A DNA stretch of 64,000 bases from Microthyrium microscopicum (taxonomy: Eukaryota): assembly GCA_010405405.1 (NCBI GenBank), contig MU004236.1, positions 694,576 through 758,575 on the forward strand. The letters are read 5' to 3'. Position 1 is the stretch's first letter. Each line of letters starts with the position of its first letter. Below are positions 11,089 to 61,780 of this stretch, in pieces. A program made the translations under genes and the position numbers. The notes below the pieces were generated by a model. The model did no database searches. It saw only the letters and a list, made by a program, of their open reading frames with translations, and was not told where the DNA came from.

Positions 11089-11167
11089 GCTCGATTAGCT
11101 CAGTTGGTTAGAGCATTAGACTAATGCTGTTATCTAAAGGCCACTGGTTCAACCCCAGTATCGAGCA
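11089..11167 (+). tRNA. tRNA-Ile (AAT) with apparent 5-nt intron
   Basis: Acceptor GCTCGAT/ATCGAGC+A; D arm GCTC-AGTTGGTTA-GAGC; anticodon stem TTAGA/TCTAA around CT-AAT-G[ctgtt]A; T arm ACTGG-TTCAACC-CCAGT; T-run terminator immediately downstream. Confidence 0.85.
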
Positions 11168-11889: not shown

Positions 11890-12791
11890 TACCCTCTAAG
11901 TTTCTAACCTATAGATTTTAAAATATACTTAGTATTAAGTATAAAAAAATATTAATTTTTAGGTTTTCTAAGACTAAGCTACTAAAATATTAAAACTAAT
12001 TAAAATAGGAAATAAAAGGTATTATTAGGTAGCCCTAGCGTAGAAGATTTAGCTTATATAAAAATATAAAAGATTTAGTAATTTATAATAGTAGTAGGAA
12101 TATTTATAGCGTTCTAAAAAGAATCTTCCTAAGCTAATACTAAGTACTCTATATCTACTAAATTTAGTATCTTTCTAAACTTCTTATATTCTTATAGAGA
12201 AAGAGCTTTTATTAAACTATCTACTAGCATCTTACCTATAAGAACCTATTTAATAAAGATATAGCCTTTTATAACTTCTTAATAAAGCTAGAACTAATAT
12301 ATATTAATATATTTTAATCTAGAAGATAAAAGCTAAGCCTACTTTATTACGATACCTACTATTTAGGTATTATTATTTAATATTAGTATTTTAATATTAG
12401 GATTAAACTTAAGCTATAAAAAGAGGCATTAAATTAAGATTAACTCTTTTAAGGTATTTAAAAAGAATAGAAGTTCTGCTTTTATTATAGATATTAAGAC
12501 TATCTTCTAACGTAAAGATTACTAACTAATAAGTCTTTTAAACAAGTTAAATAAAAAGCCCTAAGTTAATCTTTAAGTCTCCTAATTATCTATAAATATA
12601 GTATTATAAGCTACAAGAAATACTTCTTTGCTAATAGTAAGTACTTTAGTAGTTCTATAATACTTAAGCGCAAAGTATTTTATTATTTAAAGATATAGAA
12701 TAGTTTTCTTAATCTTATAGTAATAAAACTTAGAAGAATTCTAGTTAAAGTAGCTTAAATAAGAGGCTATATAATAAATATCTAGCCTATA

Positions 12792-13019
12792 TGTAAGGAT
12801 TCCTCGCTAAAGCATAATGGCTTTGGTGTTGAGCCAGATCTTTACAAAGATCTGGCGGCGCTAGTCCCGATTGGGGCTAGCGTCTCTAAGGATTTACCGA
12901 GCATCACCCTCTTCTTCCCTTAGCGTAGATTCTACTCTACCTCTCTCTCTCCCTTCGTACGCTAGATCGTTGAATATTATCTACTCTTTGCTTAATTACG
13001 TACCCGTTGGATCCTCACA
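12792..13019. mobile_element. Solo LTR (228 bp) of a second retroelement nested in the copia pol region
   Basis: TGTAAGGAT...ATCCTCACA inverted termini; 5-bp TSD CTATA on both sides; much higher GC than the surrounding RIPed DNA. Confidence 0.88.
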
Positions 13020-14722
13020 CTATATACTATCGTAGAGTAGATTATAAAGCTATAATATATTTAAAAGGCGTAAATTTAATCTTTAGATACCTATTCTTTA
13101 TTTAGAACAAGTTTAATAAGATTTAAGATAAAAATAACGTATTTAGTCTTCTTTATAATATTAAGCTAGAATTTAGCGTTAATTTTATTAATATACTAGT
13201 CCTATAAGATCTAGAGCTTTTAATTAGCTTAATCTTAAAGTATTTAAATATTAAGAAAGCTTTTTAGAGTACTTAAATCCCTTATAGCATAATACGTACT
13301 AAGTTTATATTTTATTTTATTTACTTTTACTTAATATACTTTTAGTAAGAGAAAGAGGAAATTATTAATATAATAAAAAAGAAAAATAGAATACTAAACG
13401 TATTTAAAAAAGTAAAAGTCTTTTAAAATAGGCTTAAACTTTATTATATAGAGAGTAGCTCTTATATCCTAATACTATAGTAATAAAGATCTTAATAGTC
13501 TATAAAGGGTATAGCAAAGTAGTAAGACCTTTCTAAAGATATTAAAACCTTTAAAGTATTAAACTAGAACTATTTTATCTAAAATAGTATTTAAAAAGGC
13601 ATTTATAGTATTAAATTAGTAAAGATCTAAATTAAACGTAGCTATTAGCGTAAGAATTATACATAATATATAGTAAGCTTTAATAGTAGTATAAATCTCT
13701 AGTTCTAGATTTTAGTATTATAGATCTCTTCTTATATAAATTCTAGCCTTATATTTAAGAAGGAAGCTATTTAAATTATACTTCTCTAAAAATACCTACT
13801 TTAAGGGTAGAATAAGCTTATTAGTTTAAAGGGTATAGACCTCTTTAAATATACCTTATTTCTAAAGTATTTTAATTTTAATTCTAATAGCTAAAAGATA
13901 CTAGTCTTAATTAGGGCGTTTTATTATTTTAAACTATATTTTTAATAATTCTAGTATATTTCTTTTATAATAGTATTAAACTAAAGCTATAAAGAACATA
14001 TAATATAATAAAGCGAGGAAGTAAGATTTATAAAGTACTAGATTAGTAGTCCTTAAGGATTATAAAATATAACTACTTCTTATAGCGTATATAAAGATAT
14101 TTTAAAAGGCTTAAATCTCTTATTTGTACTTAGTAATATACTACTATTTTAGGCAAGCTATTAGAGTAGCTAGTAGCAGTACTAGTAGAATTATAAAAGT
14201 AAAATCTTCTAAAGTATTTTCTCTTAATTTAGTATAATCTCTAGTAGATAACAGACTTATAAAGGGTATTAAATATCATAAAGAAGGCTAAGATAATAGT
14301 AATAATATAGGATTAGGCGTTATTAGCTAGTCGTTAAATATAAGTTAATTAGAATTGTTTTTAAAAGTCTAATAGCTATCTTATTTTTACTATTAATTAT
14401 TCTATACCCCCTAATTTTAATTAGGCTATTATTTAGCTTCTTATAGGTTAAATATACTACTACTAACGTCTATTTTAAGATAAGAGAGCAGTATATCTAG
14501 AGGTACGTTAGCAAATTAGTCGTTAATTATAGTAAGCGCAATAGTATTAAATTTAATAATTTTATTAATTATAATATCTCATACTTTAATAATATAGTTA
14601 TTTAAAGGAATCTAGACCCTAAAGATATTACTTTTAGTATAACCTATTAGCTAGCCTTTAATTAAGCAAGATTAAAGCTTCTTAAGCTTTAGAATATTAG
14701 GATTATAAATATAGGCTTTTAA

Positions 14723-15197
14723 NNNNNNNNNNNNNNNNNNNNNNNNNNNNNNNNNNNNNNNNNNNNNNNNNNNNNNNNNNNNNNNNNNNNNNNNNNNNNN
14801 NNNNNNNNNNNNNNNNNNNNNNNNNNNNNNNNNNNNNNNNNNNNNNNNNNNNNNNNNNNNNNNNNNNNNNNNNNNNNNNNNNNNNNNNNNNNNNNNNNNN
14901 NNNNNNNNNNNNNNNNNNNNNNNNNNNNNNNNNNNNNNNNNNNNNNNNNNNNNNNNNNNNNNNNNNNNNNNNNNNNNNNNNNNNNNNNNNNNNNNNNNNN
15001 NNNNNNNNNNNNNNNNNNNNNNNNNNNNNNNNNNNNNNNNNNNNNNNNNNNNNNNNNNNNNNNNNNNNNNNNNNNNNNNNNNNNNNNNNNNNNNNNNNNN
15101 NNNNNNNNNNNNNNNNNNNNNNNNNNNNNNNNNNNNNNNNNNNNNNNNNNNNNNNNNNNNNNNNNNNNNNNNNNNNNNNNNNNNNNNNNNNNNNNNN
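14723..15197. other. Assembly gap (run of N)
   Basis: 475 N characters. Confidence 1.
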
Positions 15198-15639
15198 ATA
15201 CTTTTTATAATTATAGTAATTATATTTAAAAAGTTATTAATAGAAATTAAAGAATAAAAAATATATTTATCTTTAAACAATTATAACTTAATTAACTTTT
15301 AAGATATAAAAATAATAAAAACATATCTAGATAGAGCTTAACAAGCTCTAAATAGTAATATAAAAATTATACCTTAAAGTTACCTATTTGGGTTACGATG
15401 TCTCTAATAACTACGATAAATTTTAAATAACTACAATAGATTTTAAATAACTATAATAGATTTTCGATGTATTTAAAATAACTACGATAAGTTTAAAATA
15501 ATTAGAATAACTAGAATTATTTAATACTTTATCCGATATATATCTAATGCGCATCTAATGTCTTTAAAATAACTAAAATAACCGTTTTACCGTTAGATAC
15601 GTAGTCCAATTTGCGATACATAATAATTTTTTTACGATG
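15198..15639. repeat. Right part of a TIR-bounded repeat unit (copy 1; left part presumably in the gap)
   Basis: Near-identical to 19568-20009 (offset 4370); ends ataataatttttttacgatg; subterminal ~20-bp repeats of type taactacgatagattttaaa. Confidence 0.85.
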
Positions 15640-18600
15640 TATTATCTTACTTCTTACCTATTACGGCTTTATAATTCTTATAAATTTAAAGGACCTTATA
15701 TTTAATATTGCCTACTTTATAACCTATATTTTTAATAATAGTAAGCACGTAGCGTAGGAATTAAATATAGTTCTCTTATATCTTCTAAGAAAGTATTTCT
15801 AATAGATAGAACTTTATAATAGTATAGTAAGCGTAGATAATCTAGTAATTATTATTATAGCCTTTCTTAACCTAAATTAGATTAATATAAAGTTTCTTAA
15901 AAGGCTTTAAACCTAAATCTATTAGTTAATAAGAGATCTATTTCTTTTGCTTTATTTTAATATAGATTTTACAAAAATAATTATTATCTTTAGTATCTCT
16001 AGAAGGAGTAACATTTAGAGTAATTTTTACGCCTTTAGTAGCGTATTCTATATAAGATACTATAGCTTTACTAATATAACCTATCCATTAGTGCTATTTA
16101 GATATAAAAGCTATAAAAATATAAGGAAGTAATAATATTATAGAAAAGGTATAGTAAGGATTATTTTTAAAGAGAAAGTAAATATTAAAGAAAATAATCT
16201 TAGCTAGAAGCTTTTCTATTTTAACGTACTTAATCTAGCCTATTTTGTTATTCTAGCAATATCTTATAACTTTTATCCTATAATAGGAAGCTAAATTCTT
16301 ATAGAAGCTAGGCATATAAGCAACGTTACAAAGAGTAACTATTTAGTATCCTTTAGGGCCTAAAATAGTAATATTTATATTACTATATCCTATAACCTAT
16401 AAGGAGACTCTACTATAGATTAAAGAACTAAGAATACTCTTATATATCTTAAAGTAGGATCTATTATTATAAATATATATATTTACTCTAAAATTAAGAA
16501 TAAATCTTCTATTAGGAAATATCTTAACTACTATAAACATTACAACTTTTATAACTACTATTCTAATACCTATATATTTAATTAGTTTAGGTAGTTAATT
16601 ATTATTATTACGTTTTTATTCTTACTCTCCTTAGAAGATATAATTAACTCTAGCTTTAAGTATAGAATTTCTAAGGCTCTTTTTAATTTTAGCTTCTACT
16701 TTAGAGTTAGGATACTATCTATTTAAACGTTTATTAAGTTAAAAATAAAAGTAATTATTATAGAGTTCTATCTTACTATAAAGGCAAGAAGGAGTTATCT
16801 TTCTATCCTTCTAAGAACTCTATAATCTAAACGTTAAGAAAAGTTAATAAGCATTTATATTTAAGGAAGTCTTCTTAAGTTAAGATATCTCTTCTTAAGT
16901 CTTTTTATTAAGAATAATAATAAAAGTAATACTAGATTATAATACTAGTATAATTTCTTTACTATAAATAGTCTAATACTTCTTAATATACTCTAAAAGA
17001 ATAAGTCGTTTATCTTCTATATAATAATAAATAAACTATATTTAAGCACTAGGGTAGAGAGCTTAAGTAGCGTCTATAAAGATATTTATAAGCTATTTCT
17101 TAGAGATTCTATCTTTATTATAAAAAGAGCTTTCTTTTTAAAGGAATATTTAATAAGTTAGCTAGAGTTATAGTTCTTACTATTTATGCCCCTTCCTTAA
17201 AATATTAAATTCTTTATTTAGCTTTAAGATTATACTAGTTTAGAAAGGATAAATACCTTTCTAAAGTACCTAAAGTATATCTTAAGCTTTAAAGATATTA
17301 GTAACGTAGTTCTAGAGACTTTTAGATACTATTTTATTTAGAAAGTTGTTAATCTTAACTATAGCATTTTTAGTATTTTAGTACTCCTAATAGTCTAAAT
17401 TATATATCTATAATAGAATATTATATTCTTAAGTAGGAGTTAACTCTACTATTTAAGTAAGTTAATTCTTATTATTCTTTATAGATACTTAAGAAATAGT
17501 AGATTTTACTAGGCATATTTTAGATAGGCGTACTAATTCTTTTAGAGAAGAACTAGTTCCTTCTAAATTAATATAATCTTATATATTTAGAATATATACC
17601 TATTATTTTATAGAGTTAATCTAGGTATACTAGTTATTATTATTCTTTAATATAACTACTATAAAGAGATCTCTAATAGTTACTATTTTAGGTAATCCTT
17701 TTATAAGGTCTATATAGTATACTTAAGAATAATACCTAGCTTTTTATAAAGATTAATATCTTTAATACTACTCTAATTAAGAGGTAGGAACGCTACTATT
17801 ATATTGAGTTACTATAGCTTATTCCTTTAGCTTAGTAGGCCGTTTTAAAGATTCCTCTAATTTAAAGGAACTATCTTAGTATATAAAAAAAGAAGAAGAG
17901 GTAGAGAAGAAGTAAAAAAAAGTATTTTATACCTCTAAAGATTAAGGGATTACCTATTTAGGTAATTTATGTTAAGTTTATTTAAAAAAAGCGCGCGTAA
18001 GCTTATAATAGGTACTTCTAATAAGTTATTACTCTGTTTAGAAGATACTACCTTAGTATCTCTATACCTCTATTTAGGAGATACTACCTTAATATAAAGG
18101 AAGAAGAAGAAGAAAAGGAGAATAAGTAAAGAAAGAAAGATATTTATACCTTCTAAGCTTCTAAGATTTCCTCTTTAAGTAGTTTAGGCCTAGCGTTATG
18201 TCTCTCTACTTAGAAATAAAATATAAAATAATTAAATACTTATATATTCTTACTAAGTATTCCTTCTGCTCTACTTAGGAATAGAATATAGAATAATTAA
18301 ATACTTATATATCTTTACTAAATATACCTTCTAGTTATAATATACTAAGCCTAGACTAAAGTACTAAAGTTAAGTTAGTAATAGTAAGATTGCTAATAAT
18401 ATTCTATAGGAATTTAGAATATACTTAAAGGTAGCGTAAGTTTTAGTACTACTATAGTTAAGGTAGTAAAGAGGTTAAGTCCTTAAAATTAAGGAATAAT
18501 AATAATAGTTTGTATAATACTAATAGTAAGTTTCTTTAAGAAACCTATTTAGTAGCTTAAGTCTATAAAAAAAGAAGTAGTAAGTATAGTAATATAGTCG

Positions 18601-19135
18601 CTATTAAGGATTTAGAAGGCATTATCTAGTACTACTAATGCTAAGGCTATTAGCGTATTCTAATACTACTAATACTAAGGCTATTAGCATGCTAAGCCTA
18701 GTAAAAAAGTTAAGTCCTTAAAGGTAAAAACTATTAATAATTAAGTCCTTAAAATTAAAAAAGCAATAGCGGTAAAAGAACCGTTAAAGACTAAAAGACT
18801 AGATAGTAACTAAAAGTAGTAAGAAGTATTGCTTATGCTTTACCTCTATAAATACTAAGGGTTTAAGGGAGTAATAGCTTTTAAAGAACTATTAAGATTA
18901 AGAATATACTAGGAGCTTAATAGTAAAGGTTATATAAACGCTAAATATAGTAAGAAGAGTACTAATAAAGGCGTAAAGCTTAAAGTACGTAATAAAGAAA
19001 AGAAGAAGAAAAAAAAGAAGGAAGAGAATAAAAAGATATTTATATCTCTAAGGTTTATAGGATTACCTCTTTAGGCGATTTCTTAATTTAATCTACTAAT
19101 TCCTTACTCTTTTTTACTATTAAATAACGTAGTAA
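15640..19135 (-). pseudogene. Heavily RIPed segment of unknown identity between the two TIR units; may be a former intron-containing gene
   Basis: No copia gag or integrase-core motif recognised. Three related ~80-bp units (~17885, ~18100, ~19000) read on minus as an RPKRQ.RKP.R-like exon end followed by a gtat donor and a pyrimidine tract; several short tandem duplications at 18040-18760. Confidence 0.35.
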
Positions 19136-20009
19136 CATTGTGAAAAAATTATTATTAATTTGAGCTATCTAATAGCACTAATAATAGCTATAACTATTAT
19201 ACGTAGTAGGTCATCTAAGGAGTTAGAAATAACTTTAAAATAACTATGATAACCTACGATAACCTAAAGATTAATAAATTAGGTAAAAGGATTTTACTAA
19301 AGTTCTTAAGTCTAATAACTAATTAACTAATTTAGCTATGCGCCTAGAAGATCTTGCTATAGGCTAAAATATAGGGTTTAGTACCTTTGGTTTAATCTAG
19401 AAATAAAAAGGTTAAAAAACTATAGAGTTAGTAAGGATTCTAGAAATAAATAAAAAAAGGAACATTAAAGTCTAAAAAACGTTTTTAGGCTGCAACTAGT
19501 AACTACTTAATAATAAATTCTAATTTAAATTATAACTTACTTATCTAAATAAGGGCTATCTAATGGTATACTTTTTATAATTATAGTAATTATATTTAAA
19601 AAGTTATTAATAGAAATTAAAGAATAAAAAATATATTTATCTTTAAACAATTATAACTTAATCAACTTTTAAGATATAAAAATAATAAAAACATATCTAG
19701 ATAGAGCTTAACGAGCTCTAAATAGTAATATAAAAATTATACCTTAAAGTTGCCTATTTAGGTTATAATGTCTTTAATAACTACGATAAATTTTAAATAA
19801 CTATAATAGATTTTAAATAACTACGATAGATTTTTAATATATTTAAAATAACTATAATGAGTTTAAAATAATTAGAATAACTAGAATTATTTAGTACTTT
19901 ATCTAATGTATATCTAATGCGTATCTAATGTCTTTAAAATAACTAAAATAACCGTTTTACCGTTAGATACGTAGTCCAATTTGCAATGCATAATAATTTT
20001 TTCACGATG
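19136..20009. mobile_element. 874-bp TIR-bounded non-coding element (copy 2; MITE-like or terminal module of a DNA transposon)
   Basis: Left end cattgtgaaaaaattattat is the reverse complement (1 mismatch) of right end ataataattttttcacgatg; subterminal short repeats; no ORF. Confidence 0.8.
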
Positions 20010-22941: not shown

Positions 22942-25379
22942 TCAGAATAGCTCATACTGCACTTCTCTGCCACCGTTGAAATAGAAGGCTGAAGCTTCTA
23001 CTCCAGACATCAGTCCTATCCGCTTTCGTTGGTTTTTCTTCGTTGTTGAGCTGGGAAACAAAACCAGTGCGTATGCTTGGCGACCCATCGGACCCCGGTA
23101 TTGCTGCGGTGTGCCATGAGGACCCTCACGAGAATATGTTCGTGAGCCAAGAGGACCAGTAGTGCAGAGAAGCAAGCATTCGAGAAAAAGAGGCTCAGTG
23201 CCAAAGTTTTCGTCCAACATATACTCTGCAACATCGTCATCGAAGTAATCAAAGTTGATCTTGCCGATTTCATACTGCCAGTATGGAGTCATGTGGCTTT
23301 TGAACCGTTTCTTTTTGAGGTCCCAAATACTAACATCATAGCAGGATCTTACATGTGGCGATCCTGGATTATCATGCTCTTCGAGATTTGACGATGAACC
23401 GGGCTTTCTCGTCCAGGTAGGCACCAGTACCATCCGTGACCTGCCACGTAGCACCAGTGGCTTGTCTTCCTGCAGCGTATCCAGAGGAGAGATATCTGCA
23501 TCAGGTCTGCTTTCGTTAATCTGGTCAGGATCCGACTGTGCGTCGTCTGATGGCTCTCCTTCAGATCGTTCTCTGAGCTTATTGACATTACCGAAATCGT
23601 CTGGCTCTGGCCAACTAAGGAGCTCAATTTCACGACTTGGTTCATCGTCTTTTGTCACTACGTTTCCCATGTAACGAATCATTTGAAGACCTGCGTAAGG
23701 GGGAAAAGTCACTGCGCCATCGTAGTAAAGCCAACTATAAGTTGGATATAAAAACAGCTGATTGTTTGAGTATAGTCTGCCATATTTGTCGGCCATCTCG
23801 GCCGCGTTCCTTTGGTGCTTCGAGTACTTGTCTGCCTTCCAAGCCAAGTCAATGTGTAAAGTCTCGGTCCATAAACCGCAGAGGTAGGTCCCACGCTCCG
23901 GTCGCTCGTAGGCATTGCGGATCGCATGAATAGCCCCGACTTTGTCGTTCAAGTCTCCTAAGGTGCGTTGAGAGTAATTTGACACTAGCCAAGGCCATGA
24001 ATCTCGAGCTGTTACAGTGTCATGCCCTAAAACTCGTTAGTGGAAGTTTTCGCAGTATCGATACAACGGTCATAGACTACTATGGGGTTTTTTTGTTCCT
24101 GACAGACCGGATGTAGGAGTCTACCTGTAACGCAAAGTGTTCAAGTGGATGACTTACCAGATGTATCCATCAGCTCCATCAGTTTTGTGTGCCAGAAATA
24201 GTCTCTCGGTGTCGGACCACCAGTGCTTAGTGTAGTTGTCTTGCATTTCCAATATGGCTGGACATTCGAGAAGAATATAATTCTTTTGGACAGCATCATC
24301 TCTTGAAAAGTCCAGCCGCGTTTATGAAGTGGTTCGTAATCCAGAGTCCACCTGTTAGGATACGATCCTCCGAGACGGCTCATTTTCATGCTCGATGGGG
24401 ACTTTCCATCATGTGAGTTTAACACATCAAAATATAAACTCGAATCTCCTGGGCGAAGGAAGTTTTGCCCACATCCTGAGGTATTACTGGCCGCAATCGT
24501 CAATTGAGCATTAGAATAAATGTATCCCATTTTCTTGATTTCTTCCTTTTTTGACAGTGTGTCGTCCTGAACGATACATAATGCATCGATCCATAAATAC
24601 GGAATCTCAAGTTTTCGACTCACAAGTATTGCATCTTGAATAGCTTTTGGCAATGTCCATACTGATATGCCTTCTGTGTGGTCCTGGAGATTGTCTAATG
24701 TTGTTGTGACCTGCTGATCCGTGGCAGAATTGCCCCAGCAATAACTCAAAGCTGTATAGCGGATATCGTCAGAGAGCAATGCGATTTCCACAAGCTGTAC
24801 TGAATGATTGGCGGTTGCATCCAGCTTCAGTAGTCTTCTAGGCATTACAGCTTGCCCATTCGATTTGACATGACAATTCTCATGCTCGGCATCGCAGATC
24901 GTAATCCAACTTTTCATGATTGAAAATGAGCTATCAGATATTGTGTCGGACAATACTGGTCGATCAGGTATGAAAGTAGCGGCCTCAGTGCCTTTCGGTA
25001 ACAAGATCAGCGCATGTATCAAAGAAGTAAAAGCCTGACACTGCTTACCTTGTTCTGCTACGATTTCGATGTAGTTCCAATCTCCAGTCTTGAAGGAGGG
25101 AGCAGTTAGTTTCAAGGTGTTCTCAACATGCGCTTTGGATGCTTTTGAAGAACCGAGAGATAGACGAATCTCAAAAGCATCAGGGTCTATTGTTCTGAAA
25201 TGATCAAGCAGTGAACTGAATATCGACCTTTTCCTCTCTCCTCTACGAAAGAACTCTGAAATCTGGTGACAGAAGGGGCAGCTACTGGATTCAAGATGCT
25301 TTCGACTGCCCCTATACACGCGTTTTGGATAATGTTGCTCCAATATCTCGCGGCAAGGCTGGCAAATGCTTGAGTTCAT
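22942..25379 (-). CDS. HET-domain protein; introns near 25020, 24140 and 24050
   Basis: PRRLL, YTALSYCWG, LPKAIQDAI..YLWIDALCIVQDD, MGYIYSNA, PLHKRGWTFQE; C-terminal part NYSQRTL..DK..AI..YLCGLW..DLAW..PTYSW. Confidence 0.9.
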
Positions 25380-26141: not shown

Positions 26142-26792
26142 ATGCAACGCCTCCCCCCTTCCCTCCGCAAACCAATCTTCTACACCACAATCTTCCTGGC
26201 AACATACACCTTCCAAACAACAATCTCCACCCACATCCTAACAATCGATCGGCTCACCGGACCCTCCATGTCCCCCGCCCTCAACCCTACGAACCGCCTT
26301 ACACACACCAGCAGCTCCGACTACCTCCTAATCTCACCCCTCCGTTTCCACGCGCCCTTCAGCTTCTCCCGCTGTATTTACACACTAGCCCGCGGAGATG
26401 TAGTATCATTTCGCAAACCACAGAACCCTGAAGAACGCGGCGTGAAGCGCGTGATAGGTTTACCGGGTGATCGGATTATAAGGAGAGGGGAGAGAAGCGA
26501 GTTTAATAAGCGGCACGCCAGGAACTTGGGGCTGGGGAAAGTTGACGGAGACGTGGTGGTGCCGGCGGGACGAGTTTGGTTGGAGGGGGATAATTGGCGG
26601 GAGAGTTTTGATAGTAATGATGTAGGGAGTGTGCCAATACAGTTGGTTGAGGGCCGGGTGTTGGGGGTTGTGTGGCCTCCGGGACGGTGGAGGTGGGGAG
26701 TGGAGGGACGAGATGAGAGGAGTGTGAGGACGAGAGTGATTCAGAGACGGGAGGAAGAGGATGATAGTGGAGAGTTGGAAGGAGGGTTTTGA
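26142..26792 (+). CDS. IMP2: Mitochondrial inner membrane protease subunit (peptidase S26, Imp2-like)
   Basis: Catalytic GPSMSPALN and VKRVIGLPGD; VWLEGDN..SFDS..GSVP..GRV..VVWPP. Imp2 versus Imp1 assignment is tentative. Confidence 0.8.
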   Translation: MQRLPPSLRKPIFYTTIFLATYTFQTTISTHILTIDRLTGPSMSPALNPTNRLTHTSSSDYLLISPLRFHAPFSFSRCIYTLARGDVVSFRKPQNPEERGVKRVIGLPGDRIIRRGERSEFNKRHARNLGLGKVDGDVVVPAGRVWLEGDNWRESFDSNDVGSVPIQLVEGRVLGVVWPPGRWRWGVEGRDERSVRTRVIQRREEEDDSGELEGGF

Positions 26793-27288: not shown

Positions 27289-29165
27289 CTACCGAACTGT
27301 TCGCTCAATCTCTTGCACCACGCTCTGTGTCACATCTCGAGTTCCGGACGATCCACCCAAATCTCTAGTCTGCACATTGTTAGCAACAGATCAATTGTAG
27401 ATGTTAGCTCTCACGAAATGCGATAGCTGAAATCGCAACTGAGGGCAGCGTAACAACATGCTCGGGTACGAAATGAACTTACTTTAACTCCCCATTCTGT
27501 CGCATTTTCAAAGCATCTCAGCAAGTGATCTGCAGCAGTCTGTTCCCCTAGCCATCTAAGCATTTCAGCCGCAGCCCACATGGCGCCAATTGGGTTGGCT
27601 ATGCCTTTACCAGCCAGATCAGGCCGGCTGGGCATGATAGGTTCAAAAGTGCTGGGGTTCTGGCGAGTAGGATCCAAATTTGAAGAACATGCTATTCCCA
27701 AACTTCCACTCAATGTGGATGCCAAGCTCGCAATAACATCAGAATGAAGATTCGTAGCCACTATGGTATCCAGAGAATGAGGATCCATTGTCATTCTCTC
27801 GATCATAGCATCAACTTGCATCAAATCGGCTTCTACATCAGCATAATCTTTGGCTATTTCTGTAAATATGGTGTCCCCTGTAAAAATTAGGATTAGGTTA
27901 CTGCCTGATATGATGGAAACTTACAGAATACCATTCCCCATCGTTGCATATTGCTTTTGGTTACTACGGTCAGCTTTTTCCGTGGACGAGCCTTTGCAGT
28001 CTCAAAAGCAAATCGAAAGATTCGCTCAGTAGCATGCCGCGTGAAAATGGTAACCTCAGTCGCCACGCCGAACGCAGCTTTTGGATGGGTTACACCACCT
28101 TGACCAGAGTATTCTCCTTCGGAGTTTTCACCGATGACCACCCAATCAAGATCCATTCTATCGATTGTACGAAGTGGAGAAGTTATACCGCGTAAGATAC
28201 GAATTGGACGGATGTTGATGAATTGTTTGAGCTCTTGACGCATATGAACTCGCAGTCCCCATATGGAAAGATGTTCTTGTACGTCTATTAAATAAGTCAG
28301 TTACTATTTGGATGATGTCAGTTAAGGTTAGCTTACCGTTCACTCCAACAGCTCCTAGGAATATAGCATCAAACTTTTTCAATCGCTCCATGGCGTCTGG
28401 TGGCATAAATAGACCGTGTGTCTTGTATGATTCAGAGCTCCAATCAAAGGTCTCGAATTGGACCTCAAATTTTTTGGTCGCAGTTGATAGTTTCTGGATG
28501 ACGCTGACAGCGGCCTCAGTAATATCAATGCCAATGCCATCGCCAGGAATGAGAGCAATCTTATGGACCTTCATCTTTTTTCTAGCACTTGCTGGAGTCT
28601 TTTCAACCAAAGGTCCATGATTGTGGTTGGGGTGCTTGATCTTGAGATTCCAAACGCTCGAGTTAGGAGCTTTTTGAATCAAGATCTGGAACATGCAACC
28701 TGTGCTTCGACTCGTCCGCTCGCGGATTGTACCTCGTGGTTGATATTGACCATGTCGGTCGCAATGGTAATAGTATCGTGTCTTAGCTACGTCCTTACCA
28801 TCAGGCTTGGATCGCTTGAGAGACATTCCATACCCATGTTCGCGAGCAAAGGTCATCATAGCATTGATTGCTTGCTCGGAGCTCATATAGGTCAGCTCGG
28901 GAGGTGCAGGCAATGGGTGATGCGGCGGCGTAGCCACCTGGGGACTGCCTTGTTGTGCATGTTGACTTGGAAGGGAATTGGAGACCAATGGCGTAGTCTG
29001 AAGGGAGCTTGACGCGAGGGAGGATAGTTGGTTGTGATGGACAGGTGTTAGGGAGGCAGCATGGTTGTGGACGTCGTCCATGTCCAGGAACCCACTGGCT
29101 ATGCGATCATCAATGTTGCCAGAATGGTGGTGACCCGCATTCGAGATTCCAGAGGGGCCGTCCAT
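27289..29165 (-). CDS. Fusion protein: low-complexity N-terminus, FAR1/MULE-type zinc DNA-binding domain, and tartrate dehydrogenase-like (IPMDH/IDH family) domain; exons 29165-28337, 28284-27925, 27877-27483, 27369-27289
   Basis: FAREHGYGMSLKRS..YYHCDRHG..SRSTGCMF..W..HNH runs in the same exon into KIALIPGDGIG; then NIRP, ENSEGEY, TKSN, VDAM, ATNL, FEPI, GIANPIGA, TRDLGG. All three introns are gtaag(c/t)..ag. Confidence 0.85.
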
Positions 29166-29987: not shown

Positions 29988-31081
29988 TTATTGCTTGAGC
30001 TTCTCAGTCAATTCAGGCACTTTATCAAACAAGTCTCCCACCAGTCCCACATCCGCGACTTGAAATATTGGTGCCTCTGGGTCCTTATTGATGGCTGCTA
30101 TCACTTTGCTATCTTTCATACCAGCAAGATGTTGAATCGCTCCGGAGATACCTGCACAAAGGTATAATTGTGGTGCAACGTTCTTGCCAGTCTGACCAAC
30201 TTGTAAGCTGTTGTCTGCGAACCCACTGTCAACAGCTGCTCTTGATGCTCCAATGGCGGCTCCAAGTGCATCGGCCAGGGGAGGCATTATGCGATCAAAC
30301 TCCTCTTTCGATTTCAATCCACGTCCTCCAGATACTACTCGGCCAGCTGATGCCAATTCTGGGCGATCTGATTTTGTGAGGTTCTCGGTTAGCCACTCAG
30401 TTGTAGTGGCATCTTTTGGATCCACGCCTTCTTCCACGGTCGCGGTCCCTGATGTAGGCTCTGCTGCTGGAAATGCGGTTCCTCGAACGGTGATGATCTT
30501 AATGCTGTCTTGTGATTGTACCGTTAATATGGCATTTCCGGCATAAATCGGTCTTACGAATGCTACTCCAATCAGCAAATACACATCCAGACAAGCATGA
30601 ATCACATACTGTCTTCTCCCTCGATTGCAGTGATATCAGATATTCCCTGTGAGTCTAAAAGAGCGGCAACTCTTGGCATCAAGTTCTTCCCAAAGGCAGA
30701 GTGGCCCGCCAGCACATGTGTATAACCTCCTTTCTTGATGTTTTCGACCACCAAAGGAGCAAAGCTTTCTGCTAGGCCCTTATCGTAGGCTGCACTATCC
30801 ACGTATAGGATCTTCTCGATTCCCTCAACCTTAGCAGCTTCCTCTGCAACTGCCTTGGTTCCCGCGCCGGCCACAAATGCATGTATTGGACCTCCAAGCT
30901 TCTGAGCTGCAGTCACTGCCGCCAAAGATGACCCATTGAGTTTGCCATCTCTTTGTTCGAGAATCGCTAGTGACGAGAGTAACCGAGCATAGCTTGTGAA
31001 CTGTGGGGTGGCGGAGAAAAGGGAAGAGCGGAATTGAAATCGGGCCTGGCGAAGGACGGTTGTGGATCGTGTTGATAACAT
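29988..31081 (-). CDS. AIM45: Electron transfer flavoprotein alpha subunit, mitochondrial; intron ~30563-30607
   Basis: Mitochondrial presequence; [64 protein letters not shown]. Confidence 0.96.
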
Positions 31082-56771: not shown

Positions 56772-59370
56772 TCATGCTCCCGTAACGGCCTCGACGCGCT
56801 TCAGAAACTCACGTACCCGTCCCACATCATTCTCTGGCTCACTCTCCACCGCCTGTACGAGCTGTGGTAACACTGGATCGACTTCATCCTCAGCAACACC
56901 AGTACATAATGAGACAACTTTACGGTACTTGCTTTCAAGCTCAGTATCGCGCGCCTTGAGCGACATGAGGTGCGCGTTAAGACTCGCAAGCAGCTGGTTA
57001 TACGTGCCAATCTGCGAATTCAGATTCTGCGGGTCTGGGGTATCAGCCGGATCTTGGAGGTCGAACGCAGAAGAGTCAGGGAGGAGGTAGTCACTATCAG
57101 CATCACCGACAGAGAGCGAAGGAATGCCGCCACGCGCATTGCCAGAGTTGCCGATACGATCGCGGATTTCACCAACAGCACGTCGCAGGTTCTGGATTCG
57201 TTGCTTGCGTTCCTGGCGGCCTTGCAGTTCGGCAGTCTGAGCGTCGACTTGGGTGGTGAGTACTTTCTGTTTGCTGGAGAGATCACGAATTTCATGGGTG
57301 GATTTGTCAATTCGGTCTTGTAGGAGGCGAAGTTCGGTACTGAATTGGGATGAGGTTTGTGTCATGGATGTAGTGAGAGCTGGATGAAGTTGTTAGTCAG
57401 GTCATAATTATAGGCTTAGGAAACATACTTGGCATGAGCTCCTGGGAAACTTCTTCTGCTTTGCTTGGGACCTTGGACTTGGGACTTTCGGCTATCCTTT
57501 GAGATAAGCCTTCCGAGCTCTCTGGGTCTATTGGCTCAACACCAAAGTCGACAGGCCGTAATCCTTTATGATTCGGAATGGTTGGGTCAGCTTGCACTTC
57601 GACGAGCTGTCGGATTATACTGCTATTCCCAATTCTTGCCACTAGATTTAGCGCGGTGTTTCCTGCCATATCTCTGGCATTGACCATCTCGCTCATAAAA
57701 CGCATGAGACCGATAGGCGCTTTTGGTTGGCTACTATTGCCACCATCGAAAGAAGAGCTGGAGTTGTCATTGTTCGTTCTTCGTACAAGGAACTCGAGAA
57801 GTGCTTCCAGATAGTATTTTGAGCTTGTGTTTCGACCACGAATGCCAGATGCTAAAGCAATGTGATGCAGGATTGTTCGTCCTTTCGAGTCCCTGATCTC
57901 TATAAGAGAATTCAGGAGCTCGAGAAGGTCAGGAAAACAAGTATGATCAAGGCAATTGTTCACTTGGACGGCGGCCATCAAAGGGGTTTCACCAGCGATA
58001 TTTCCTCGGAAGATACTGGCTCCCTTGGCAATAAGCAGCTTCATTAGAGGAATCCTTGCGAGCGTTGCAGCCCAGTGGAGAGCGGTGTTTGCCGATTGAT
58101 CTAAAGGTAGATCGAGATCAGGACCCGAAAGATGTAAGATAGCCGGATGATTGGTATAATCAGTTCGATGGAGATCGGCAAAGAGATCGAGAAGAAGCGA
58201 TTGTTTCTCTTCACTAGACTTGTCTGAGGGATGAGGTAGTGGTGGGTAAGCAATTGGGACATCGCCGTCCGAAGCCATGGCTTGATCTGAAGGCCTGTAG
58301 AGGAAAGATTCGTTTGCTTCAGTGGGCGACCCATCACGAATGAAAGATTGTGATTCTCCATTCATGTGTGAATAATCAGCATCTGGTGTGCTTGGTCTCA
58401 TTCGTTTCCTTGGTGGTTCTTGAGAATCCATGCCTCGATCGAGTTGTTGGGTGATGTATGCAGAATCCGTACCATTGAAACTACGCTCATGATGTAACCC
58501 AGGATTACTCCGTTGGCTTGAAGGCTGCTGAGAATTCTGCATTGATTCCTGACTATTAGGGAAAGACCGCGCAGCGGAGCCGGGACGTCTTGGAGCGCTT
58601 GCCGGCCTTTGGGGAGGAGTATTCAGTCGCGCCGCTCGATTCATAGCAGATATCGCATTTGATGCTGCGGAGGAGAGGTTGGAGAAGAATGTTCCAGTCC
58701 CTTGCGGCCCTTGAGGCTGGCGACCGTCCTGAGTCTGAGTATATAGCCGTTTACGATTGGCAGCCATTGCCTGTTCTTTCGTTGGAGTATCGACACCATT
58801 TCCAGGTTGACCACTTCCATCGGCACTTAGATCATAGTCCAGGAGGGGTCGCAAGAGTTCTTCAACACCATACTGTCGGCAGAATTCGCGACCTCGGCGA
58901 TAATTTATCCAGGTTCCTTGATATTTGCCATAGCCACCTTGCACTTTTTCATGTTCACCGGTGAGGATCTCTTTCTCTAGAACTTTTGTCCTCTTTCCCT
59001 TGTCAACGCCCGCGACCTTTAATATTTGAGTGGCATTGAGCCACGAGTCGGATCTGCGTCTCATTACAACAACTCTGTTGATAACCATTTCATATACTTG
59101 TACTCCGGAGTAAACAGCCTAGTGGGAATTTAGTGCATGCCATCAACAAGCAGTGTTAACCAGTTCGCTTACAGTATAAATTTGAGGAGATGGAGCCATT
59201 TGCTGATGCGCTCCTCCATTCATATCAGGAAAACTGCTGCGATAGCTGGACATGGCGCTCTGTTGGGAGCCATACATCATCTGGCCATTTCCATCTTGGG
59301 AGGATGTAAAGGAGGCAACATTACGAGGATCATATGGAGGAATAGACATTGTCGGAGCGGTCCCCTGCAT
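56772..59370 (-). CDS. SWI6: APSES/KilA-N plus ankyrin cell-cycle transcription factor (Swi6/Cdc10-like MBF/SBF subunit); introns ~59119-59170 and ~57381-57428
   Basis: IYT|AVYSGVQVYEM..VMRRRSDSWLNATQILKVAG..EKVQGGYGKYQGTWI; ankyrin repeats NTALHWAA, ETPLM, RTILHH, NTALN; C-terminal coiled coil KYRKVVSLC. The start codon is tentative. Confidence 0.85.
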
Positions 59371-60231: not shown

Positions 60232-61219
60232 TCAGTCAGCGTGAGGTCCATTTTCATGGTACTCTGATAACGTTCCCCTTTCTATTCTCCTCCTTTTCAA
60301 CCAGTGTCTAATGTTGTTGAAGTTTCGGCAAGTATGAGTTCCTCCATGAGCAATATACATCTGCTCTCCATTCATAACCGCGCCTTCTTGTTTATACAAT
60401 GGTATCGGAGTGAGGTCTCCATGGCACTCAACGACCTGTCGAACGTAGTCTAGACAATGTTCTTCATTGAATGTTAGCTGAATCGAGCGTCTCGTAGTTG
60501 GAGGACTTACCCATATGAACTTCCGAAAAATGTGGCGGAAATTGTGGTCCATCCTGATGCAGTTTTCCGATACTTGTGTAGTAGTCTTTGAACATGTTGA
60601 TTCTGAGCGCGTTCACACAATGTAAGCCGTGGACGACGCCGACAGCAGCAAAGTAGTTGCCAGACTTGTTCTCTCCTTTTATCTTGACAAAGTCTTCTCT
60701 GGCAAACGGTTTTGCTTCTTCGTCTGTAAGACTAAAGAACTCGTCTTTCAAGATGTTCGCCCAGTTCTTGTCGATTTCCGGATAGACGGCTGGATTCCCG
60801 AAATATCGAGGCTCATTAGCTGGTCTCTCGTACCAGAAGTCTTTCGCCGTGTTGTTCCAGACTATGCCACCGGAAAACACTTTTTGCTCGAAATCAATGT
60901 ATTGCCGTGCTTGTTCAAAGTCCGTCGCGAAGCCTGGCTTTTGCTCATTCACTTCAAGCTGTTTTGCTGCCAGATCAGTGAGAATCTTTTCCAGGTGCCA
61001 TAAGCGGAAGAGTAGAGCCAGGACGACGATTCCTAAGAGAAAACATGATGCGGCGGCGAAAAAGAAGAGATTTCGGAATCTATCTGATCTCGAATGGCTG
61101 TATAAATAGTGTCCTTCTCTTGTTGGCGTGTCCACTTCAGTGTCGCTCTGATCATCTTCGCTGAAGTCCTCCCTTATCACTCGTAACGGTTTGCTTTCTT
61201 CCATGTATCGTGGGCTCAT
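60232..61219 (-). CDS. DUF3328 / UstYa-like oxidase; intron 60462-60510
   Basis: N-terminal TM helix; PRYFG.P..EIDKNW; two HXXHC motifs, VHGLHCVNALR and spliced VHM|EHCLDYVRQVVECHGDLTP; HTCRNF..IR.W. Confidence 0.92.
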
Positions 61220-61780
61220 AATGTGCGCGGAGTGAGGACCTGTCAATCCAAGTTATGAACTTCGCTGTAATGTTGGCAAAACATGTGCCAGTGAAATGGT
61301 CATTGCGGGCGGAAACGAAAGGTGCCAAAATAGAGTTCGCGGAGGCGATTTCACCTGCTCTATCTATCTCTATATGAAACACCATTCTTCTATACTTTGT
61401 GGCTCCACAAGCTAGCTCGAATCACTCTACCCCAAGGTGATGCGCTTTAGGGTACAGCGGCGTGGGCTGTACATGGCCTTCTCTGAGATGGCTTTATATT
61501 GATCTATACCACAACCCCTATCAACGATCTTCAAAGATAACGGTTATGCCAAGGAGATCTTGATTTGCTTCTCCATCAATGAAGAATATAATCCTTGGTA
61601 TTCGAGATCTTTCCTTGGCTCACAGTGTTCTCATCAAGTGAGGAAAGTATGGTGGCTTACTAAGCACATATCGTCAAACAACTTCTGTCTGAGCTTCAGA
61701 AACTTGCATCTGATCTTTCGTTTCCTGTCAAATGCCACGACAGTGAACGCGCTCAAGCCTTTCTCCACTCAAATAAGCTT

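Follow-up and report, generated by a model that had tools for sequence, protein, structure and literature searches.

The gene analysed here occupies the reverse strand of the 64-kb stretch of Microthyrium microscopicum DNA that was studied as a whole (hereafter, the window). Its four exons would encode a protein of 554 amino acids in which a low-complexity N-terminus, a FAR1-type DNA-binding domain (DBD) and a short basic linker run into a domain resembling tartrate dehydrogenase (TDH). The coding sequence comprised 1665 nt including the stop codon, contained zero internal stops and was interrupted by three GT-AG introns (Table 1). The exon junctions gave gap-free alignments to plain fungal TDHs, exon 2 shared 83 of 119 residues with a relative carrying the RENSEGEY motif (P0411), and the ORFs of nine relatives ran unbroken from exon 3 to exon 4, matching the spliced product of the window. 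When the positions were recounted, Met198, Gly328, Ser447 and the Met478/Pro479 pair fell exactly where an earlier note on this DNA had placed them. Within the 64 kb, we found neither a second FAR1 or Iso_dh copy nor a plain TDH paralogue, and there was no transposase nearby. The neighbours of the gene are housekeeping genes rather than a metabolic cluster. RIP was also considered as the source of the substitutions described below and ruled out, since the gene region had normal RIP indices (TpA/ApT of 0.65 and (CpA+TpG)/(ApC+GpT) of 1.3-1.4); the corresponding values for an AT-rich block at 12-20 kb were 1.46-1.71 and 0.12-0.25.

Table 1. Features of the FAR1-TDH gene, in positions of the window
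Feature	Coordinates	Strand	Remarks
Whole gene	27289..29165	(-)	554-aa product (FAR1 DBD + TDH-like domain); 4 exons; junctions match homologues
Exon 1	28337..29165	(-)	aa 1-276 + first base of codon 277: N-terminal region, FAR1, linker, first 75 Iso_dh residues
Low-complexity N-terminus	28890..29165	(-)	aa 1-92; S14, P11, H10; pI 5.8; one K/R
FAR1 / insert-containing WRKY-GCM1 zinc domain	28608..28889	(-)	aa 93-186; Pfam envelope aa 105-183 = 28617-28853
Putative Zn ligands	28761-28763; 28695-28697; 28623-28625; 28617-28619	(-)	C135; C157; H181; H183
Basic linker	28566..28607	(-)	aa 187-200; 5 K/R of 14; RKKMK; Met198 at 28572-28574
Intron 1	28285..28336	(-)	52 nt; GTAAGC..TAG; phase 1; relatives' ORFs end here
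Exon 2	27925..28284	(-)	Iso_dh core: R292, R302, G328 (28130-28132), Y335 (28109-28111), K386 (27956-27958)
Intron 2	27878..27924	(-)	47 nt; GTAAGT..CAG; phase 1; coincides with in-frame read-through in P0411
Exon 3	27483..27877	(-)	Kept: D419 (27810-27812), D443 (27738-27740); altered: S447 (27726-27728), M478-P479 (27630-27635), R481 (27624-27626)
Intron 3	27370..27482	(-)	113 nt; GTAAGT..CAG; missing from nine relatives' ORFs
Exon 4	27289..27369	(-)	Final 26 residues + TAG stop

The Ser/Pro/His-rich N-terminus was weakly conserved among the relatives and could possibly act as an activation region. In the following domain, the translation gave the Cys/His pattern C135-x21-C157-x23-H181-x-H183, in which a long insert separates the Cys residues, and Pfam FAR1 (PF03101) matched with 29.1 bits (E 1.6e-6), a marginal score 1 bit over the cut-off of 28.1; the FAR1 domains of the relatives scored 23.6-30.2 bits. 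These two results bear out the FAR1 domain that the earlier note had recognised from its C-x21-C and HxH signature. In an alignment of 36 sequences, C135 was invariant and C157 was at least 90% conserved, as was W172 in the FAR1 alignment, the conserved Trp of the fourth strand. The AlphaFold model of the domain (pLDDT 78.6) contained four strands (model residues 25-31, 41-46, 71-76 and 83-89), the last of which holds W172, and both a fourth strand and a conserved Trp are described for insert-containing WRKY-GCM1 domains (PMC1702500). When the model was used for a fold search, Aft2-DNA structures took the top three places among the PDB matches (TM 0.49-0.51) and WRKY domains the next seven, with a best E-value of 5.5e-3 and none reaching 0.001, and the FAR1 alignment profile matched Aft2 (4lmg) with an E-value of 7e-4. 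As modelled, the DBD shows the four-stranded WRKY-GCM1 fold. The closest non-fused relatives of the domain included the N-termini of fungal MULE transposase proteins (45% identity and E 4e-25 for a MULE-domain protein; 39% for a second one), in agreement with the link to Mutator transposases that the note had drawn. The MULE core (PF10551) and the SWIM zinc finger had no match in any exon, so that the gene has only the DBD in common with the MULE/FRS families. The FAR1 domain was basic (pI 9.95) and constituted the best-conserved part of the protein, with 66-92 of its 94 residues identical in the relatives versus 40-61 of 74 for the adjoining Iso_dh segment. We predict that it binds DNA in a sequence-specific manner, and the RKKMK stretch of the linker is a candidate nuclear localisation signal.

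The fusion was found in related sequences as well. Ten clusters of homologues (P0001-P0010; 26 sequences, 60-92% identical) encoded FAR1 and Iso_dh in a single ORF, which in each of the ten broke at the position of intron 1 in the window. Their linkers, 20-32 residues in length, were always in frame, and no stop separated the domains; the one-exon, one-frame layout read by the earlier note is therefore repeated in all 26 sequences. The note would have given up co-translation if transcripts started at Met198. Such a separate start was rejected, as this residue is not conserved (Ile occupies the position in the closest relatives), and 15 of the 26 relatives had no Met anywhere in the linker, the other 11 having some. 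Moreover, the fusion linker could be aligned with the stretch that extends plain fungal TDHs at their N-terminus, minus the TDH start Met. The tree tests allowed the fused sequences to share one origin: the AU test did not reject their monophyly (p = 0.945), and the tree constrained in this way was better by 47.9 lnL. As for complete proteins, none of 2177 candidates of 484-2000 aa was a full-length fused homologue, and when 1.84 billion cluster representatives were scanned exhaustively, one entry across both domains was returned, the 231-aa fragment P0009. Three other entries that matched over the domain junction (P0308, P0405 and P0371) turned out to have Iso_dh only, their N-termini being unrelated, and the ESM Atlas look-alikes of exon 1 provided no usable match. 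In the collections searched, every occurrence of the family is an ORF fragment of a eukaryotic contig without annotation and, therefore, standard annotation has probably yet to report it as one protein. Altogether, these comparisons confirm the gene, as modelled from its sequence alone, as a real, co-translated and evolutionarily conserved fusion of a filamentous fungus.

The Iso_dh domain (PF00180) begins at residue 202, in the same exon as FAR1, and runs on through exons 2 and 3. It belongs to the PF00180 superfamily, with matches to profile positions 1-72, 88-192 and 200-322 of 348 scoring 41.2, 70.2 and 91.7 bits, respectively (cut-off 27). The top family for each of the three large exons was TIGR02089. 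Scored separately, the exon pieces gave 83.5, 147.1 and 149.7 bits, about 380 bits in a sum that excludes the last 26 residues and two split codons, versus a cut-off of 470.4 and 514 bits for the plain fungal TDH P0012. Compared to a plain fungal (Delitschia) TDH, 229 of 364 residues were identical. We then considered the 67 columns that were at least 97% conserved in 99 full-length TDHs, 55 of which are kept in the window's gene. Among the 12 altered columns, five presented radical changes (R328G, D447S, H478M, G479P and A481R) and seven conservative ones. Specifically, the Arg at position 328 was present in 99 out of 99 TDHs and the Asp at position 447 in 98, while the nucleotide loop reads EPIMPSRPD instead of E-P-x-H-G-S-A-P-D, with Asp483 kept and His, Gly and Ala each found in 98 of the 99. 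Similarly, the second metal Asp was present in 117 and the His-Gly pair in 118 of the 120 exon-3 homologues listed. Alignment to 3flk_A showed that R292, R302, Y335, K386, D419 and D443 were retained. The substrate Arg trio (3flk_A positions 98, 108 and 134) is consequently represented by R292, R302 and G328, and the metal Asp trio by D419, D443 and S447. The catalytic pair is intact (Y335 and K386 correspond to 3flk_A positions 141 and 192), and the GKGIANP segment is also retained. The roles of these Arg and Asp residues in TDH are presumably those of the wider family. Their counterparts in E. coli IDH are Arg119/129/153 for the substrate, with roles drawn from PMC13660168 and from the wider family, and Asp283', Asp307 and Asp311 for the metal. 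The three altered motifs listed in the earlier note, together with the catalytic Tyr, Lys and remaining Arg/Asp residues that it regarded as retained, were all recovered in these alignments, and the altered positions proved to be near-invariant in the 99 TDHs.

Further comparison of the fused relatives showed that degeneration was restricted to one branch. Exon-1 and exon-3 fragments of the relatives were paired by the equal size of their source contigs (nine coincidences), and the catalytic motifs were canonical (RENSEGEY, DILSD or HGSAPD) in five of the six fused lineages for which downstream exons could be assigned. The sequences with degenerate motifs, six rows in all (the window's gene, its nearest relatives and P0125), formed one clade with an SH-aLRT support of 99 and a stem length of 0.62 changes per site. 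All six sequences had S447, M478 and R481 in common; the exon-2 change R328G is known from the window's gene alone, and the sharing across the clade covers the exon-3 changes. At 63-78% identity, the six presented no indel or stop over 131 columns and all kept D419. The five relatives ran intact to a conserved C-terminus, and in four of them the first Asp of the DxxxD pair had changed to Glu. The pseudo-enzyme proposed in the earlier note is consequently upheld for the motif losses of the window's gene, common in exon 3 to its clade, and does not hold as a trait of the architecture; the conservation of the substitutions in orthologues, which the note had suggested checking, extends to the six degenerate sequences and stops at the canonical lineages. 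When FAR1 and Iso_dh-N identities were compared, the degenerate branch gave 99/82 and 95/72%, and canonical fused pairs gave 98/91, 93/88 and 91/91%. The Iso_dh part of the degenerate branch was diverging 2-3 times faster relative to FAR1 than that of the canonical fused lineages, suggesting that its constraint has been relaxed or redirected. Between the window's gene and P0125, 18 of 27 motif positions in exon 3 were identical, compared to 63% overall. The altered motifs were no better conserved than the rest of the exon and, therefore, do not point to a specific new ligand pocket. Altogether, the distribution of the motifs indicates that the fusion preceded the loss of the catalytic motifs, which occurred afterwards along the branch of the window's gene, and the degenerate motifs would represent a derived state rather than decay.

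We propose that the DBD of a Mutator-like (MULE) transposase was joined 5' of a TDH paralogue. In the resulting protein, the N-terminus would have been acidic and of low complexity, the zinc DBD and the linker basic, and the TDH fold would have followed them; the active site of the ancestral fusion would have been intact. In the branch of the window, the substrate Arg, the metal Asp and the His-Gly pair of the nucleotide loop would then have been replaced through the five radical changes described above, after which the dehydrogenase domain would have evolved faster and the DBD would have remained almost unchanged. The present protein may be a nuclear regulator that binds DNA at specific sequences. 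Its TDH-derived domain would no longer carry out beta-decarboxylating dehydrogenation and, because Iso_dh enzymes are obligate dimers, might serve as a dimerisation scaffold, possibly also as a ligand-binding module through the remodelled cleft. This reading, in which a transposase-derived DNA-binding regulator carries an enzyme domain turned into a non-catalytic dimerisation or ligand module, is the one we prefer, with about even confidence.

The same divergence could be read in another way. Faster evolution, with the long stem of 0.62, would be equally expected of a domain heading to loss, and the altered motifs were conserved no better than their background. Only the FAR1 domain and the N-terminus might then be functional, with Iso_dh drifting, or the whole gene might be a young pseudogene. 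However, the reading frame is intact over four exons with canonical splice sites, the degenerate sequences are free of indels and stops and their C-termini are preserved, more than half of the aligned residues (229 of 364) are still those of a plain TDH, and the six are invariant for S447, M478 and R481, which makes such decay unlikely. We considered it quite unlikely that the domain is still an enzyme, with a shifted substrate or cofactor or with metal-independent chemistry. The protein would then combine two functions, catalysis and DNA binding, like bacterial PutA, and this may also be true of the canonical fused relatives, which show that enzyme and DBD are a viable combination. The retained Tyr335, Lys386, Arg292, Arg302, Asp419, Asp443, GKGIANP and Asp483, together with the 55 of 67 near-invariant columns kept, would leave room for residual or altered activity, and the new R481 of all six degenerate sequences could substitute the lost positive charge. 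Nevertheless, the changes affect the substrate Arg, the metal Asp and the nucleotide loop at once, in columns where 97-99 of the 99 TDHs agree, the first Asp of DxxxD was replaced by Glu in four of the five clade relatives, and the clade shows a long stem branch and quicker divergence.

Pairing with an active partner appeared improbable as well. As in yeast IDH1/IDH2, the degenerate domain could be the regulatory subunit of a heterodimer with a plain TDH paralogue, to which it would give Lys386 and Asp419 in trans, its own site would bind an effector, and FAR1 would couple the state of the enzyme to DNA or tether it to chromatin. K386 and D419, the latter in six out of six degenerate sequences, correspond to residues that the second subunit provides in E. 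coli IDH (Lys230' and Asp283, in the passage of PMC13660168). The lost R328, D447 and His-Gly loop would be cis residues, yeast IDH1 and IDH2 (3blv/3blw) were among the solved homologues, and plain fungal TDHs were plentiful among the homologues. Against this pairing, no plain TDH paralogue was present within the 64-kb window, and the cis/trans assignment for TDH combines the background of the family with one passage on IDH. Finally, Met198 sits just ahead of the Iso_dh fold, a linker Met occurs in 11 of the 26 relatives and the homologue searches found no annotated full-length fused protein, but an annotation artefact, meaning separate translation of a short FAR1 protein and of a dehydrogenase-like one from Met198, or else a chance open frame, is highly improbable given that Met198 is not conserved, that 15 relatives have no linker Met, that 26 out of 26 lack an inter-domain stop despite their 20-32-residue linkers and that the linker lacks the start Met of the TDH extension with which it aligns.

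What is new here is that the FAR1-TDH fusion is a conserved family that is degenerate in one clade. The fusion of an enzyme with a DBD is the simplest coupling of metabolite level to transcription. Such fusions are well studied in bacteria, and rare and poorly documented in eukaryotes. Plain TDHs, FAR1-TDH fusions with a canonical active site and FAR1 fusions with a degenerate site constitute a natural series and, therefore, the path from enzyme to regulator can be tested with few recombinant proteins. The gene would also add a further domestication of a transposase DBD in fungi to those of Aft1/Aft2 and Rbf1. More tentatively, and with considerable reserve, these proteins could be a fungal family of one-component regulators, so far undescribed, that arose when a transposon-derived DBD was wired directly to a tartrate/D-malate dehydrogenase. 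This family would include a bifunctional, PutA-like stage with an intact site and, in the window's branch, a pseudo-enzyme sensor stage whose cleft, with S447, M478 and R481, might read a hydroxy-acid or nucleotide metabolite and control transcription.

Regarding known systems, TDH / D-malate dehydrogenase (decarboxylating; TIGR02089; Pseudomonas putida TDH, PDB 3flk) was the best or second-best solved homologue. The TDH-specific segments and the Tyr/Lys pair are kept in the window's protein, as are two of the Arg and two of the Asp residues; unlike TDH, the protein bears an N-terminal addition of about 200 residues with the DBD and is devoid of Arg134, Asp253 and His284-Gly285 (3flk_A chain positions, by offset). 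Iso_dh folds without catalysis are exemplified by yeast IDH1 and human IDH3 beta/gamma, homologues at E-values of 5e-13 to 1e-7 that are kept as ligand-binding or assembly subunits. These are not fused to a DBD and belong to the isocitrate branch, whereas the window's domain belongs to the TDH branch, and the alignment showed that yeast IDH1 retains the Arg lost in the window's gene. With plant FHY3/FAR1 (FRS family), the gene shares an N-terminal FAR1 DBD (PF03101) and a domesticated Mutator origin. FHY3/FAR1 retain the MULE core and the SWIM zinc finger, which serve dimerisation and activation, whereas in the window's gene both are missing and the TDH fold occupies their place. Aft proteins have no enzyme domain and sense iron through a Cys motif. 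The DBDs of Saccharomyces Aft1/Aft2 (Rcs1) and Candida Rbf1 belong to the same family as the window's FAR1, according to the profile and structural matches to Aft2, with a low identity to Aft2 of 12-13% in the structural alignment. These fungal transcription factors arose from MULE transposase DBDs, following the same route from transposase to regulator (PMC1702500) as is proposed for the window's gene.

The earlier note knew of no characterised protein with this architecture, and in the literature library that we searched no paper paired FAR1 with a tartrate or isopropylmalate dehydrogenase. For this kind of protein, however, the closest published precedent is provided by the fungal stand-alone WRKY-GCM1-isochorismatase fusions of Babu, Iyer, Balaji & Aravind (2006, PMC1702500), who suggested that the enzyme domain senses a small molecule. 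As in the window's gene, a transposase-derived FAR1-type zinc DBD without transposase core is combined there with a metabolic-enzyme fold in a conserved host gene of filamentous fungi (PMC1702500). The partner here is instead a TDH-type Iso_dh, and the word 'dehydrogenase' is absent from the main text of PMC1702500. Furthermore, the family described here has both canonical and catalytically degenerate members, which makes the transition from enzyme to non-enzyme visible.

Pfam scans placed a FAR1 domain (PF03101; residues 105-183; 29.1 bits, cut-off 28.1) and the start of an Iso_dh domain (PF00180; from residue 202 and on through exons 2 and 3) together in exon 1 of the predicted gene. This agrees with the earlier note, whose described features were all recovered in place. 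The translation carries the zinc pattern C135-x21-C157-x23-H181-x-H183, a linker (residues 187-200) containing RKKMK and Met198 (28574-28572), and the altered motifs GENSEGEY, DVIAS and EPIMPSRPD, starting at residues 328, 443 and 475. The three introns (52, 47 and 113 nt) all have GT..AG borders. The gene model is supported by homology, since plain fungal tartrate dehydrogenases (TDHs) can be aligned across all three exon junctions with no gap, exons 3 and 4 read as a single piece matching the spliced product in nine relatives' ORFs, and the homologous ORF P0411 reads through in frame at the position of intron 2. Intron 3 was missing from all nine relatives' ORFs covering that point, which points to a gain in one lineage or a loss in all others.

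Features of the window around the FAR1-Iso_dh gene
Feature	Position	Strand	Remark
FAR1-Iso_dh gene	29165-28337, 28284-27925, 27877-27483, 27369-27289	-	four exons; predicted product 554 aa
Intron 3 of this gene	27370-27482	-	113 nt
S26 signal-peptidase gene	26142-26792	+	one flank of the FAR1-Iso_dh gene
ETF-alpha gene	29988-31081	-	other flank, immediately upstream
HET-domain gene	24141-25379	-	no obvious link to the FAR1-Iso_dh gene
KilA-N + ankyrin (APSES-like) gene	57397-59088	-	no obvious link to the FAR1-Iso_dh gene
UstYa-family (mycotoxin biosynthesis protein) ORF	60464-61246	-	no obvious link to the FAR1-Iso_dh gene
AT-rich block	12001-20000		GC 0.17-0.24; strong RIP-like signature
ORF in AT-rich block	14672-15280		single ORF of at least 140 aa in the block; no Pfam match
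tRNA-Ile (anticodon AAT)	11089-11167	+	edge of AT-rich block; the window's only tRNA

The window has the look of fungal DNA. Among its genes are HET-domain, APSES-like, Swi3-like, GH47 and ETF-alpha genes, and introns are short and of the GT-AG type. The ETF-alpha gene consists of two adjacent ORFs in different frames (an ETF domain, then an ETF_alpha FAD domain), presumably split by a short intron or frame change near 30602. The AT-rich block showed TpA/ApT of 1.46-1.71 versus 0.5-0.9 elsewhere in the window and (CpA+TpG)/(ApC+GpT) of 0.12-0.25 versus 1.2-1.5; this RIP signature was absent from the FAR1-Iso_dh gene region.

The dehydrogenase part can be assigned to the TDH branch: TIGR02089 was the top NCBIfam for every exon piece, and the separately scored pieces (last 26 residues and split codons outside) summed to about 380 bits, the cut-off being 470.4 and a plain fungal TDH scoring 514. 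For comparison, 99 full-length TDHs (three fungal, the rest bacterial or metagenomic) were chosen from the homology matches by length (335-395 aa). At the 67 columns conserved in at least 97% of them, the window protein retains 55 residues and carries seven conservative changes (G258A, D280E, L284I, I291M, I444V, L445I and I484L) together with R328G, D447S, H478M, G479P and A481R, so that all three altered motifs do hit near-invariant positions. The last three fall in the H-G-S-A-P-D loop, which takes part in nucleotide binding in this dehydrogenase family. When aligned to Pseudomonas putida TDH (3flk_A), G328 matched position 134, in RENTEGEY, while Y335, K386, R292/R302, D419, D443 and S447 corresponded to 141, 192, 98/108, 225, 249 and 253. 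By alignment offset, G328, Y335, D419, D443 and S447 are equivalent to Arg153, Tyr160, Asp283, Asp307 and Asp311 of E. coli IDH, described in PMC13660168 as isocitrate- or metal-binding. Judged residue by residue, the window protein lacks three features expected of a working TDH.

Exon 1 as query returned ten clusters (P0001-P0010; 26 member sequences, 60-92% identical), and in all ten a single ORF held FAR1 together with the beginning of Iso_dh. The ORFs had been called in prokaryote style on contigs lacking annotation, and each stopped a few residues past GAVG, exactly at the position of intron 1. The results show that a MULE-derived FAR1/WRKY-GCM1 domain and a TDH paralogue are fused in one ORF and that this fusion is conserved. 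In a scan of 1.84 billion representatives, P0009 (E 1e-74) was the sole entry spanning both domains, the next-best matches having FAR1 alone or Iso_dh alone, and a search of proteins 484-2000 aa in length gave no full-length fusion. P0308, P0405 and P0371 were rejected as fused proteins, being Iso_dh-only with unrelated N-termini.

Among the 120 exon-3 matches listed, 117 kept the second metal Asp and 118 the His-Gly, and the Asp-to-Ser and His-to-Met changes were shared only by P0121 and P0125. Cluster members included, S447, M478 and R481 occurred in six sequences (the window, P0121, P0254, P0255, P0256 and P0125), hereafter degenerate, which formed one clade (SH-aLRT 99; stem 0.62 changes/site versus a median terminal branch of 0.075) in a quick tree of 131 columns with many unresolved forks. 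The fragment P0226, plain TDH-like in other respects and lying outside this clade, shows DVLSN, with Asn replacing the second metal-binding Asp, and its nucleotide loop is changed to HGSAFNM; active-site erosion may have occurred here a second time, independently. Exon-1 and downstream fragments were then paired by identical size of their source contigs, consistently cluster by cluster. P0001 was linked to the degenerate P0255 (shared size 8237); fragments with canonical motifs were linked to P0005/P0243 (P0123/P0257; 6831 and 110098), P0007 (P0227; 2555), P0010/P0418 (P0408/P0407; 1545 and 36876), P0006/P0417 (P0414/P0415; 4653 and 3996) and P0416 of the P0004 cluster (P0411; 3293). P0411, identical to window exon 2 at 83 of 119 residues, spans exons 2-4 by read-through with VPDHISLW, RENSEGEY, DILSD and HGSSPE. 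On nine size coincidences, five of the six linked lineages are thus fused and canonical. The AU test did not reject (p 0.945) a tree in which every exon-3 row known to be fused was grouped apart from named plain and bacterial TDHs, and this tree surpassed the quick free one by 47.9 lnL; ENVTEWGV(K/R) was common to the fused groups, plain fungal TDHs having ENVT(G/A)AGIK. Most fused lineages keep canonical catalytic motifs, and the degenerate state is limited to the window's own branch, where three functional elements were lost once, as a derived change (R328G being read in the window only).

The strongest constraint fell on the DNA-binding domain. FAR1 was better conserved than the adjoining Iso_dh segment in every comparison (66-92 of 94 versus 40-61 of 74 residues), and, with FAR1 divergence matched, the degenerate branch showed 2-3 times as much divergence in this segment (FAR1/Iso_dh-N identities of 99/82% for window-P0002 and 95/72% for window-P0001; canonical fused pairs, 98/91% for P0005-P0243, 93/88% for P0003-P0004 and 91/91% for P0006-P0008). 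Despite this faster divergence, the degenerate domain is not breaking down: indels and stops were absent from the six sequences over 131 columns, their C-termini were intact, and the window domain matched plain TDH at 229 of 364 residues. The replaced motifs were conserved no better than the rest of exon 3, and so do not establish a specific new pocket. A passenger domain drifting towards loss is unlikely, and about as unlikely are a shifted enzymatic activity and a heterodimer of the IDH1/IDH2 type formed with a plain TDH. In the heterodimer reading, K386 and D419, which would be donated in trans, are the residues that were retained. Least likely is separate translation of the two parts from the internal Met (28574), since the relatives' linkers (20-32 residues, always in frame and Lys/Arg-rich) lack Met in 15 of 26 cases and the closest relatives carry Ile at Met198, indicating that solo translation of the dehydrogenase part is not the conserved mode. 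We favour a nuclear DNA-binding regulator in which the TDH fold would supply dimerisation and a ligand may be bound in the remodelled cleft. Enzymes of the Iso_dh type are obligate dimers, and in plant FHY3/FAR1 dimerisation is performed by the MULE/SWIM part.

The transposase origin proposed for the DNA-binding domain was borne out by its nearest non-fused relatives, which include a MULE-transposase group (P0014, P0276, P0309 and P0335), with 45% identity to the N-terminus of P0014 (E 4e-25) and 39% to P0335. The others were stand-alone or tandem FAR1 proteins (P0011, P0259, P0260, P0286 and P0314) and one SNF2-helicase fusion, P0297 (1574 aa), in which two FAR1/AFT domains are joined to the helicase. 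Two or three tandem FAR1 domains occur among P0286, P0314, P0259 and P0260, and in these organisms the domain looks promiscuous. A profile of the 36-sequence FAR1 alignment matched the DNA-binding domain of Aft2 in its solved structure 4lmg (E 7e-4). The AlphaFold model of residues 90-200 built on this alignment (pLDDT 78.6) opens with a helix at the N-terminal end, after which come four main strands, and its ten best PDB matches were all WRKY-GCM1 domains, headed by the Aft2-DNA complex (TM 0.49-0.51, E 5.5e-3), none reaching E 0.001. The domain is basic (pI 9.95; 15 K/R versus 6 D/E), and the 92 residues ahead of it are Ser/Pro/His-rich and acidic. [quoted passage not shown]

Our literature search found no pairing of FAR1 with tartrate or isopropylmalate dehydrogenase. 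In contrast to the plant FRS family, which has MULE and SWIM domains, the window gene has neither by Pfam, and it is thus neither an FRS member nor a transposase. The closest published kind is the same type of fungal DNA-binding domain fused to an isochorismatase domain, for which a role as small-molecule sensor was proposed (PMC1702500); that paper mentions no dehydrogenase partner.
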